From contig OX597833.1 in NCBI GenBank assembly GCA_951406725.2, positions 61,194,001 through 61,258,000 on the forward strand: a DNA stretch of 64,000 bases, in the 5' to 3' direction. A program made the translations under genes and the position numbers. Shown piece after piece: positions 3,111 through 10,700 of this stretch; within the stretch, counting starts at the first letter, position 1; every line of letters begins with the position of its first letter. Source of the DNA: Octopus vulgaris. Its lineage: Eukaryota. Below the pieces are notes generated by a model. It worked only from the letters and a program-made list of their open reading frames with translations. It was not told the origin of the DNA and made no database searches.

Positions 3111-3287
3111 TTGGTGCTGGAGGTATGTTATCTACATCGATGTCTAAAAGCATTGGCCAACATCGTTTTCTGTTTGCACTTTTCAGAAGTCCTCCTGAAC
3201 TGATGGCAAAACGCCGGAGTTGAGAAACAGAAAAAGTTGGATGATTTACGAAGTCTTTAAGTTTGGTATCTTTCTTCTCATCTCCTC
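3111..3287 (-). CDS. TBC1D20: TBC1D20-like RabGAP, exon 2
   Basis: Acceptor TTACAG|, donor A|GTAAGT, 177 nt; encodes GDEKKDTKLKDFVNHPTFSVSQLRRFAISSGGLLKSANRKRCWPMLLDIDVDNIPPAP, resembling the TBC1D20/Gyp8 LRR.A.S.GGLL...R...WP.LL segment. Confidence 0.92.
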
Positions 3288-4890: not shown

Positions 4891-6876
4891 CTTTACAGCT
4901 TCAAAAACCTAACACACTTTTTGGAGACACACATTTATGTCCATTTTTTTCATGTTTGCATGGGTTAGACTAGTATGTTATTGAAGCATTATTTTACAGC
5001 TGGATGCCCTTCCTGTCACTAACCTTTACCTGTTTTTTCAAGTAAAAGATCTCTTCTTTTTCATGGCTTTGAAGGTCCAATGCGAATGAATGATTGTTGA
5101 CAAGAACCAACAATAACAACACTGTTTGTCACAAAATTAAGTTCCTACACATGTAACCCTTTTGTTACCGCATTTCCACTGAAATACAATGTCTTTGTAT
5201 CAATTGATACAGAAAATAATGAAGAATTTAGTAAAATAACCTAGTAATTAATTATTAAGCTGATATTTGGAACAAATTAACAAGAAATTTTGGCCGTTGC
5301 CAGCCTTGCCTGGCCCCCGTGCCGGTGGCACGTAAAAGCACCATCCGATCGTGGCCGTTGCCAGCCTCACCTGGCCCCCGTGCCGGTGGCACGTAAAAAG
5401 CACCATCCGTCCGTGGCCATTTGCCAGCTCCGTTTGGCACCTGTGTGGGTGGTACATAAAAAGCACCCACTACACTCACGGAGTGGTTGGCGTTAGGAAG
5501 GGCATCCAGCCGTAGAAACACTGCCAGATCAGACTGGGCCTGATGCAGCCTTCTGGCTTCACAGACCCCAGTTGAACCGTCCAACCCATGCTAGCATGGA
5601 AAGCGGACGCTAAATGATGATGATGATTATCTCAAAACAGGTAGTGTATACCAGAGAACCAAGGGTGTTCTCACACAGGTTGGTATTAAATGGATTAAGT
5701 GTATTTCACAAACCTAATTCTTAGTCATTCATCATCATTAAATATCTGTGTCCATATTGGAATGGGTTGGACAGTTTGACAGGATCGAGAGAACCAGAAG
5801 ATTGCATTGAGTTCTAATGTCTTCTTTGGCATAATTTCTACTGCTGGATACCCTTCCTAATACTAAACACTTTACAGAGTGTTTTGGGTGCTTTTTTGTA
5901 GGCCCTAGTACAAGTGAGGTCACCAAGTGACTGGTAAGACAAGCAACCTTGAATGAGGGAGGGGGCACTTTGTGCCAGGTGTCGGAAGGCTAAAATATGA
6001 TAGGACAGGAATAGATGCCTTACTTTATGGGGAGATACACGACTGCTCCAGCAGGAAAAGGAGAAAGGATTGTAGTGATGAGGTGTCACAGCTTACCCTC
6101 AAGGCTAAGAGGGTGGATAAAATAGGAATTAGAGAAATGAGGATGGCTATCATCATCATCGTTTAACGTCCGCTTTCCATGCTAGCATGGGTTGGACGGT
6201 TCGAATGGGGTCTGGGAAACCAGGAGGCTGCACCAGGCCCAGTCTGATCTGGCAGTGTTTCTATATATAGCTGGGTGCCCTTCCTAACGCCAACCACTCT
6301 GTGAGTGTAGTGGGTGCTTTTTACGTGCCAGGTGAGGCTGGCAACGGCAACGATCGGTTGGTGCTTTTTACGTGCCACTGGCACAGAGGCCAGTCGAGGT
6401 AGCGCTGGCAACGGCCACGTTCGGATGGCTCATGTGGGGTAGATTTGCAAGAGTGCGAAAGGAAAGTGACACAGATGAAGAGAGAGGTGAATGCACTTTA
6501 TGGTGAGCATATTCATTCCAACCAATTATTCATTTAAATCCAAATAATCAGACAACCTCTCAGAATGTGTGCCTATGTATCCATGTGTGTGTGTATGTTG
6601 TGAGAGATCATGTGACAGTACAATATGTGTAATTAACTTCTATAATTGCACAAAGTCCATTGTTTCAGCCAAGCAACAAACCGAATTAAAATTTACAATA
6701 AAGAAAATACTTCGATGGAGATGAGTTTTTGAAGTGAGGGAGTAAGTGGCCTAAAAATTAGAATCCATTATTATCGAATTATTTCTAAGGTTAATAATTG
6801 CAGCGTGGAAGGTGGTTTATAAGCCATTTAAGAAACACACAAAAACCGTTCGATTCACTTCAACATTTAAATTTAA

Positions 6877-6927
6877 TTTGTCAAAATATTTTCGTCGCTT
6901 TGAGACCGCGACCTCTTCACTGACAAA
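6877..6927 (-). ncRNA. Minimal type I hammerhead-ribozyme-like motif (variant core)
   Basis: Minus strand reads UUUGUCA-GUGAAGA-G-GUCGC-ggucucaaa-GCGAC-GAAA-AUAU-UU-UGACAAA: 7-bp stem I, CUGANGA-like box with C3G, 5-bp stem II, GAAA, palindromic stem III remnant, UH site. Confidence 0.6.
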
Positions 6928-7091
6928 GCTTCTTGCTGCATCTCGAAGGTTAATGTTTTACAAACTCAGCAATAATAAACACGTGGGATAACCATGTATA
7001 ACTAAGACATATGTTCCTCTACCTCTATTGCATCTGAAACTCATCCCCTTCCATAAGGCCATTATTATTACACAACATTTAAAAAACTGGG

Positions 7092-7387
7092 GGTACTACT
7101 AGCGAACAGTGGTCCCGGTGCGCGCACTCGCGCTAGCTAGTCGTAAGTAGTCGATCCTACAACGACCTGCACGTATGTTCGTATTTCAAGGCTGAATACA
7201 TATCAAAGAAAATTAAATAATATTTTTCGAATAAAGTAAATGATTTTTTAAACTAAAATAAATTATTTTTATAAACAAACTAAGGTTAGGTTTAGGGTTA
7301 AAAAGTCGTTGTATTATCGACTACTTACGACTAGCTAGCGCGGATGAGCGAGTGCGCGCACCGGGACCACTGTTCGCTAGTAATACC
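7092..7387. mobile_element. Long-TIR MITE (GG termini)
   Basis: About 75-bp TIRs GGTACTACTAGCGAACAGTGGTCCCGGTGCGCGCACTCG...; AAACTGG on both flanks; AT-rich core with TTAGGTTTAGGGTTA. Confidence 0.85.
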
Positions 7388-8123
7388 GAAACTGGTACAC
7401 ATTAACACACACACACACGCAAATATTGGTTCTAAGTTTGGGCACAGGGCCAGCAAGATTTTGGTTAGGCGTTAAGTCGGTTACATTTACCCCCCCAGTG
7501 TTCAACAGATTCTTATTTTCTAGACACGGAAAGGATGAAAGGTAAAACCGACTTCGGCGACAGACGAAATGCTGCTAAGCATTTTACTGGGCGAGCCAAT
7601 GATTCTGCCAGCTCGCCGCCCCTACACAACGAATATTAGGAAATAATTACACATACACACACTGATAAATAATTTGGCAATCTTAAGATTGCCAATAATT
7701 AAATTAAAAAAACGGGGGAACCAATGAAGAGGTAGTCGTTCGATATGCAAGAAACAATAGCCAAATCACCCACAAATCTCACTCGTTTTGAGAAAGAACA
7801 CGAAACATTGGATAATATAAACGTAGAAAACCTAACCAAGACGAGATGGTCATGAATGAAAATAGGTATTCAACAACAACAGCAGCAAGGCATAGAATAG
7901 TATCTACGGTTACGTACGAAGGTATCATGTACTCGTGTATCTTTCAATCTAAACCGAAGCATCAGTTACACAGGTGTTTTAGCTTTCAACTTCCCTGCTT
8001 TCAGATTTCTGGGAGAGAGAGATGCCTGCCAATAGCAACAGATAAGCTGCTGCTTTTTTGTAACTATGTAAAACCGCCCCTGCCTCTTTCGGGGTGGAAT
8101 AACTAGCCCAATTCTTCAAAAGT

Positions 8124-8248
8124 ATACACACACACACATTATATATATATATATATATAAACACACACACACATATATATATATATATAAACACACACAC
8201 ACATATATACACACACACACACACATATATATATACACACACACACAC

Positions 8249-8290
<42 letters not shown>

Positions 8291-8304
8291 ACACACACAC
8301 ACAT

Positions 8305-8350
<46 letters not shown>
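8124..8350. repeat. Compound (CA)n/(TA)n microsatellite
   Basis: Seen directly. Confidence 0.95.
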
Positions 8351-8355
<5 letters not shown>

Positions 8356-8496
8356 CCTGCTCGCTTAGCCAGTGGGGTGGCGTCATTCGAAGGCTAAAAC
8401 AATGCGAACGCATTGTGACCAGCGATGTGTAACTATATCTGATGGACTGGTCAGTCACGTAATATATATATATATATATAAACACACATATATATA

Positions 8497-8709
8497 CGGA
8501 AGAAGGAGAGACTGAAAAGTTCTTGGCTTTTGGGTAAAAGAAAATACAGTGAGGGATCAGTTAATTATGATGTTATCTTCTCCTCAGATTCACTTATTGC
8601 TGCGGTCCTTCAGTTTTTTCAAAGTCCTGTAAAAGAACTCTGAAGGTTGGGCTTCCAGAAAGGTCTGTCGCGATAACCCGAAAGCCAAGAACTCTTCAAC
8701 AGCCCCTCA
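8497..8709. mobile_element. Tc1/mariner-like MITE, older copy
   Basis: Internal sequence matches 58042-58246 (GGCTTTGGGTAAAAGAAA...GAGGATCAGTTAATTATGAT); TA flanks. Confidence 0.7.
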
Positions 8710-10534: not shown

Positions 10535-10700
10535 CAGGACGTTTGCGCCTTGCTCCAACCGGTGAGCTTTGCACCGTTGAAAATTTAGAATCTCCATGAG
10601 AATTCGATTGAGGGGGCGATACATCAGCTTTAAACCGTTTACGTAAGACGAAATCCGTGTTGTCCAGAGCAGTCGGGTTCGGTTTGCTCTGCTGTAACAT
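10535..10700 (-). CDS. TBC1D20: TBC1D20-like RabGAP, probable first coding exon
   Basis: Read by hand: ATG at 10700 with an in-frame upstream TAA; open frame MLQQSKPNPTALDNTDFVLRKRFKADVSPPQSNSHGDSKFSTVQSSPVGARRKRP-G; phase-1 donor G|GTATGT matches the phase of the next exon; CpG-richer than flanks. Peptide is not recognisably conserved. Confidence 0.7.

Follow-up and report, generated by a model that had tools for sequence, protein, structure and literature searches.

A truncated Penelope-like pseudo-LTR in a TBC1D20 intron of Octopus vulgaris and the G3–C8 hammerhead core of its family

The insertion in coding intron 1 of TBC1D20

The window, the whole stretch of 64,000 nucleotides from Octopus vulgaris that was analysed, contains two coding exons of TBC1D20. 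The host gene was identified by the match of exon 2 to PDB 4hl4 (E 2.3e-7), and a predicted protein labelled Octopus vulgaris was 100% identical to this exon; Pfam gave 0 matches for the two exon frames. Both exons lie on the minus strand and bracket a short insertion in coding intron 1 (between 10700–10535 and 3287–3111), which is sense to the gene, as the first-pass annotation had stated. The insertion likely has no effect on TBC1D20. It is flanked by a 9-bp direct repeat, AAGGTTAAT, that had been reported before and was found again at 6787–6795 and 6946–6954, abutting the unit exactly. The following features were read.

10535 to 10700, minus strand: TBC1D20 coding exon 1 (tblastn with residues 1–56 of P0122, 100%; donor site read).
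3111 to 3287, minus strand: TBC1D20 coding exon 2 (PDB 4hl4 match; splice sites read).
6796 to 6945, minus strand: truncated 3' part of a Penelope-like pseudo-LTR (pLTR), short tail-less form, subfamily A (older); siblings 95–97% identical, collinear with both pLTRs of locus L175.
6946 to 6954: target-site duplication on the element's 5' side, a direct repeat, AAGGTTAAT on the plus strand.
6787 to 6795: target-site duplication on the element's 3' side, a direct repeat.
6943 to 6945, minus strand: 5' boundary, two non-pLTR bases followed by an A (6943), the position at which 5' ends of the family accumulate.
6935 to 6940, minus strand: 5' arm UGCAGC of a predicted helix closing the 150-nt unit (MFE folds of the window copy, L002 and L175).
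6921 to 6927, minus strand: hammerhead stem I, 5' strand UUUGUCA.
6914 to 6920, minus strand: core positions 3–9, GUGAAGA, with G3 at 6920 and G8 at 6915 (C8 in the family).
6913, minus strand: extra G between core and stem II, conserved in published minimal hammerheads (Cervera and de la Pena 2014, PMC4209133).
6894 to 6912, minus strand: stem II GUCGC/GCGAC, 5 bp, G10.1–C11.1, with a 9-nt loop II that varies by subfamily.
6912–6908 and 6898–6894, minus strand: the two strands of stem II.
6885 to 6893, minus strand: G12 A13 A14 (6893–6891), then the palindrome AAUAUU (6890–6885; A15.1...U16.1) replacing stem III.
6884, minus strand: U17 in standard hammerhead numbering; predicted cut at 6884/6883.
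6877 to 6883, minus strand: hammerhead stem I, 3' strand UGACAAA.
6796 to 6827, minus strand: ATG (6827–6825) and first codons of the Penelope-like element (PLE) ORF, with a one-base insertion in the window copy.
6804 to 6799, minus strand: 3' arm GCUGCA of the closing helix.

The type I hammerhead claimed for the minus strand was re-read base by base, and stem I, core, stem II, GAA, palindrome and U17 were all found within 6927–6877 where they had been placed. U17 is common among the representatives in Fig. S3 of PMC4209133. A descriptor allowing any 3–8 pair matched the 64-kb window once, at this motif, and gave 0 matches in 60 first-order Markov resamples of the window at three stringencies. 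An Rfam scan of 5500–8500 at E<=10 matched no hammerhead model. The MFE structure of the 150-mer contained stems I and II, and its overall stability was ordinary compared with shuffles (z -0.08). The same intron carries, 140 bp from the hammerhead copy, a MITE-like element of about 300 bp (7092–7387), whose long inverted arms match at 98% over 40 nt and at 89% over 46 nt.

An end piece of an autonomous Penelope-like element

Comparison of the 150-mer with the 2.8-Gb genome gave 1,202 candidates; the 40 that were scored were 95–100% identical. A downstream pLTR segment had 7,173 exact-pattern matches genome-wide, a number that counts both halves of inverted pairs as well as segmental duplicates and is not a count of insertions. 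Some copies extend upstream through a microsatellite-rich stretch into the end of an ORF. The first-pass annotation had pointed to adjacent Penelope ORFs with RT and GIY-YIG as something to look for, and these are present: in 28 ORF-bearing copies the pLTR lies, in sense, about 1.0–1.7 kb downstream of the ORF end. At L175 the order is an inverted truncated ORF, a 5' pLTR of about 1.1 kb, the ORF and a 3' pLTR, with the core GUGAACA in both pLTRs. The ORF starts inside the pLTR (MAYKHLPRC...), and the window copy has that ATG at 6827.

The open frame P0001 (839 aa) contains SMDVVSLYP, GAIG and YVDD, and ends in YQIKC...YIGETSRS..RFKEH, a GIY-YIG-like motif that we take to be the GIY-YIG endonuclease; the ORF at L178 has 971 aa. 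A Pfam search with P0001 itself matched 0 families, and among 30 aligned relatives RVT_1 was found in 6 and GIY-YIG (PF01541) in 4 (best E 2.5e-4). The window insertion corresponds to the final 150 nt of an autonomous PLE's pLTR, ORF start codon included; the element encodes RT and GIY-YIG. The earlier assignment to the Penelope-type minimal type I hammerheads was right. The description as a tiny non-autonomous retroelement was wrong, as the unit is a truncated autonomous pLTR with that element's own ATG. The stated unit length of 150 bp holds for the short form, and copies using the second 3' end are about 210 nt long.

A short retrozyme- or SINE-like element, copied by way of cleaved or circular RNA of its own, was nevertheless considered. 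Solo short copies greatly outnumber copies with an ORF (7,173 matches to the pLTR segment vs 29 to the 5' part of the ORF), they have a fixed 5' boundary and target duplications, and retrozymes have been proposed as PLE derivatives (10.64898/2026.07.22.740005). The unit is, however, an unmodified piece of the autonomous pLTR, ATG included, the cut site is not where copies end, and the loci examined contained inverted partners only and no head-to-tail tandems of hammerhead monomers. The non-LTR retrozymes of 10.64898/2026.07.22.740005 are also short repeats without coding capacity that carry type I hammerheads and are akin to PLE pLTRs, but they form head-to-tail tandems, whereas the octopus copies occur as single or inverted pieces of a pLTR with an ORF start. 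We regard such a non-autonomous origin as very improbable; solo copies of the autonomous element may also be mobilised secondarily in trans.

The family shares many traits with the minimal hammerheads of metazoan PLEs in PMC4209133. The motif lies in both pLTRs and is sense to the ORF, a palindrome stands in place of stem III, and the extra base between 9 and 10.1, G10.1–C11.1, the common U17 and the predominance of solo or inverted-pair copies are found here as well. A linker of the form CX3CX2C (CQSNCAVC) in P0001 points to the Neptune or Nematis type, as judged from the protein sequence, since a CX2-5CxxC linker between RT and EN typifies these EN+ PLEs (Craig et al. 2021, PMC8557442). They also share with the octopus family the C-terminal GIY-YIG, a bias for (TA)n and microsatellites, and partial tandems with an inverted 5'-truncated partner. 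In contrast to the description of Neptune and Nematis in that paper, the octopus pLTR is about 1.1 kb long and microsatellite-rich.

Two further loci were noted. Copies of subfamily A with an ORF, a retained upstream pLTR and G3–G8 cores are concentrated in the first 15 Mb of G000:C16 (L013–L017, L061–L064, L067–L083). In one of these regions (L063:8399–10000, minus strand) a distinct RT/GIY-YIG ORF of another PLE family, 534 aa open, lies about 8 kb from a family copy.

The 3–8 core pair in the family and its relatives

Exact patterns over the core gave 3,373 matches genome-wide, and the reversed control gave 0; like the matches to the pLTR segment, these do not equal numbers of insertions. 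Among them 118 lacked G3 and 225 had G3 but no C8, which leaves, by subtraction, 3,030 with G3–C8. Patterns with shorter flanks gave 5,883 exact matches for G3–C8 vs 208 for G3–G8. No C3–G8 core was seen among the first 100 of the 118 matches without G3. The core departs from the canonical CUGANGA; the family has GUGAACA and the window copy GUGAAGA. The Watson–Crick pair at 3–8 is present in the family and missing in the window copy, where G6920 stands opposite G6915. A family core of GUGAACA had been predicted from the window copy, and it proved dominant (3,030 of 3,373).

The first-pass annotation had suspected that the window copy is inactive, naming both the G3–G8 opposition and the extra G before stem II. 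The second reason falls away. A nucleotide between 9 and 10.1 is a conserved trait of minimal hammerheads in metazoan PLEs (PMC4209133) and the siblings, as well as each of the six related lineages, carry this additional base following A9; therefore it is no defect. The first reason stands. In the hammerhead of PAc, the Poseidon element of Anolis carolinensis, cleavage is protein-assisted, C3G or G8C abolish it, and the double change C3G/G8C partly restores it (Frangieh et al. 2024, PMC11167929). Because G3–G8 equals the C3G mutant, the ribozyme of the window copy is by analogy predicted not to cut and is likely dead. No partner for a dimer lies near it. In itself the window locus is likely unremarkable, a dead fragment from a class of elements already known.

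G3–G8 made up 49 of the first 100 matches without C8, next to 40 with U8 and 11 with A8. The complementary change from G to C at position 3 accounted for only 10 of 100 matches without G3, and G3–G8 was well above random expectation. Among the ORF-bearing copies of subfamily A, 5 of 9 carried it, and G3–G8 copies were scattered on a poorly resolved pLTR tree; in the younger branch the ORF-bearing copies, 19 in number, all had G3–C8. Since G3–G8 copies are common, scattered and present on ORF-bearing copies, the predicted-dead core did not stop the spread of its carriers. Apart from these, three G3–A8 copies at G000:C2:171239230–171246119 (L173–L174) are spaced 3.41 and 3.46 kb with no family ORF between them, and probably represent a local tandem duplication.

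The orientation of the pair distinguishes the family from the published cases. Minimal hammerheads in PLE pLTRs are already known, and the 56 representatives in Fig. S3 of PMC4209133 have C3 or U3 (U3–A8 in Schistosoma Cercyon) and none has G3. PAc has C3–G8, and its G3–C8 is an engineered rescue (PMC11167929), whereas G3–C8 is the natural majority in the octopus family. Natural covariation at this pair has been described as U3–A8 (PMC4209133; Perreault et al. 2011, PMC3088659). The change to U3–A8 takes two transitions and keeps a pyrimidine at 3 and a purine at 8, while G3–C8 takes two transversions and replaces purine 8, whose 2'-OH takes part in hammerhead catalysis (PMC8495972). In the literature searched G3–C8 occurs as an engineered variant only (PMC3884650, PMC8495972, PMC11167929); passages of PMC6155905, PMC2553840 and PMC11014351 contain nothing on a natural one. 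Neither a natural G3–C8 nor an octopus PLE hammerhead was found in this literature. The flipped core of the family, as read from genomic copies, is a real and apparently unreported variant.

Related elements were compared at the same position. C3–G8 was found in six lineages: the metagenome PLEs L147, L148, L150 and L159 (29–47% protein identity) and two families of octopus, one a young sister family and the other older. The descriptor missed the hammerheads of L147 and L183, which were found by eye, and of 26 metagenome loci, many without flanks, four showed a hammerhead. In the protein tree the G3–C8 family stands beside the young sister family, nested among C3–G8 lineages, and because of this nesting G3–C8 is taken as derived from C3–G8, by two changes. 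Stem II covaries (GUCGC/GCGAC vs GUCAC/GUGAC), and the stems of L148 and L159 are altered in sequence with pairing retained. L150 and both octopus sister families have a stem I that is weak or contains bulges. The older of these (L219–L238, 158 matches) has the motif in the same place, a similar ORF start and a variable, often bulged 3' strand of stem I. The young one (L183; L184–L188) has intact ORFs of 1,308 aa in 4.59-kb tandems; its hammerhead at L183:5931–5885 (minus strand, G000:C19) has C3–G8, C for A9 and poor pairing in stem I, which points to decay of the ribozyme although the element itself appears to be active. The hammerhead of L147 (at about 4975–5020, read by eye) has C3–G8 but U15.1–A16.1. 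Given the common G3–G8, the C9 and poor stem I of the young sister family and the U15.1–A16.1 of L147, drift of the core is tolerated in this clade.

Within the family, subfamilies A and B are about 87% identical at the 3' end of the ORF and both carry G3–C8. Their first 150 columns contain 10 differences, of which five fall in loop II and none in core or stems. This gives modest support for a core kept by selection, as the loop changes perhaps represent few events. In the fold of L002 the hammerhead is not the MFE structure (stem probabilities 0.30–0.35), and the MFE of a dimer cofold lacks the stem III duplex.

Copy ends, RNA reads and the proposed route of insertion

The ends of family copies were analyzed with two samples. 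In 30 pattern-selected copies the 3' ends clustered at 148–155 (18 copies) and 207–208 (10 copies); the 3' boundary of the window copy at 6796 is the first of these. An inverted partner was present in 21 of the 30, a second count giving 18 of 30, and 8 had a non-simple duplication of at least 7 bases, the remainder lying mostly in (TA)n. The 5' ends were determined for 93 segments picked by a pattern downstream of the cut site and taken from 80 of the 85 regions that contain the first 100 of the 7,173 matches, all on C1: 41 ended at positions 1–10, 13 at or above position 0 (two upstream extensions being spurious (TA)n alignments), and 1 at 61–66, around the cut site. Seven of the 93 have an identical junction and probably stem from a single insertion that was duplicated. 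This inverted-pair insertion on C1 (L037, L039, L056–L059 and others) recurs at least 7 times with the same junction and flanks, and therefore it rides inside another repeat or duplication.

With these distributions a MITE-like DNA element could be assessed. Such an element, with 6-bp inverted ends (TGCAGC/GCTGCA), a 9-bp duplication and an incidental hammerhead, would account for the short inverted arms near both ends and for the duplication of the window copy. The unit, however, flanks an RT/GIY-YIG ORF on both sides in direct orientation, its copies show uneven 5' ends, two alternative 3' ends, truncated partners in inverted orientation and duplications that differ in length, and related PLEs carry hammerheads at the same place. 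The structure of L175 and the end distributions rule this reading out, and we give it practically no credence.

The position of the 5' boundary of the PLE copies was also evaluated. Of 27 copies without genomic upstream sequence, 14 have a G before the start A (background 18%; P 2e-4 at 0.2), although about 5 of the 14 extra Gs are explicable by the sequence of the inverted partner. The stretch immediately before the unit resembles a branch point with an acceptor, and an intron origin of the boundary was considered, but the copies have no constant upstream exon. Because the upstream sequence is not constant and only a single G is frequent, a transcription start is preferred over splicing. We infer a capped RNA that would start about 20 nt before stem I and be copied uncut. 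In the window copy, the A at 6943 would be the transcription start of the element RNA and the G at 6944 is possibly a copied RNA cap.

A search across sequencing runs gave none recorded as RNA that carries the sequence. Three RNA runs were then examined. They came from one study, possibly of another species, and about 6% of each was sampled, with 1,308, 1,003 and 945 reads aligned to the pLTR end. Both orientations were about equal and the depth beyond the pLTR was 0–5, which fits read-through of solo copies inside host transcripts. Neither read starts nor read ends piled up in the three runs, a weak test of cleavage since the reads reflect such solo copies. No cut-site joint occurred among the 15 joints shown of 17 in these ordinary cDNA libraries, and no variant at core positions 3 or 8 among the 40 rows shown of 91.

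These data bear on whether the family core still functions. It might be a catalytically dead relic of the same origin, in which the 3–8 pair drifted via G3–G8 to G3–C8 and the stems were kept for a promoter, protein binding or translation start. In line with this, only 1 of 93 5' ends lies at the cut site, no RNA read ends there, G3–G8 copies have spread (208 matches), the cores of the young sister family and L147 are degenerate, and insertion in vitro proceeds without hammerhead cleavage (PMC11167929). On the other hand, two transversions restoring an exact Watson–Crick pair are unlikely by drift alone, G3–C8 is kept in every one of the 19 ORF-bearing copies from the younger branch, and fixed differences between the subfamilies, five in loop II, are absent from U4-G5-A6, A9, GAAA, palindrome and stems. 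We are inclined to doubt a dead relic, while counting it a real possibility. By analogy with the laboratory C3G/G8C rescue, we lean, by a narrow preference, towards a G3–C8 ribozyme that keeps a weak, dimer- or protein-assisted activity.

In the route that we propose for the family, the A immediately before the ribozyme would be the transcription start. The protein encoded by the element would nick AT-rich DNA and use either of two internal positions, lying about 30 and 90 nt into the ORF, to initiate cDNA synthesis. A cDNA primed in the 5' pLTR would reach the 5' end of the RNA and run off it after 150 or 210 nt, and the outcome would be thousands of short solo or inverted-pair insertions with duplications of 9–14 bp. 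The template would be uncut, probably capped element RNA; the G3–C8 ribozyme would act on a minority of the RNAs and be dispensable for insertion. The two 3' ends of the octopus family match the optional tail and the two internal priming sites of PAc.

Several features agree with what is described for the lizard element in PMC11167929, namely two internal RT starts, an optional 3' tail, AT-rich targets, an unprocessed RNA template and no RNA-seq ends at the cut site. The octopus family differs from PAc in its ATG about 57 nt downstream of the cut site, its tail of about 60 nt and its CX3CX2C linker. Altogether we are fairly confident that the window copy is a truncated pLTR of an autonomous octopus PLE with a G3–C8 family core, likely derived from uncut, probably capped RNA, and that this copy itself is predicted not to cleave. 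A bolder reading, which we offer tentatively and doubt somewhat, is that the family has the first natural G3–C8 hammerhead, that it is active, was fixed and kept through about 13% divergence and thousands of insertions after crossing an inactive intermediate, and that, as the short copies would record, insertion draws mainly on capped, uncut RNA with priming in the 5' pLTR. If true, CUGANGA searches would be blind to flipped-core families and PLEs regarded as 'hammerhead-less' may hide them.

C3–G8 is among the most conserved features of hammerheads, and G3–C8 is the textbook rescue mutant of the laboratory. A CUGANGA descriptor would miss the octopus family, and standard descriptors undercount such ribozymes. 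The end distributions support in vivo a model of internal priming on an uncut template, which has so far been described in vitro for one lizard element. A natural G3–C8 family beside C3–G8 sisters and a G3–G8 sublineage provides a set for asking whether PLE hammerheads must cleave. Judging from the degenerate cores in relatives, cleavage by the family ribozyme may be dispensable.
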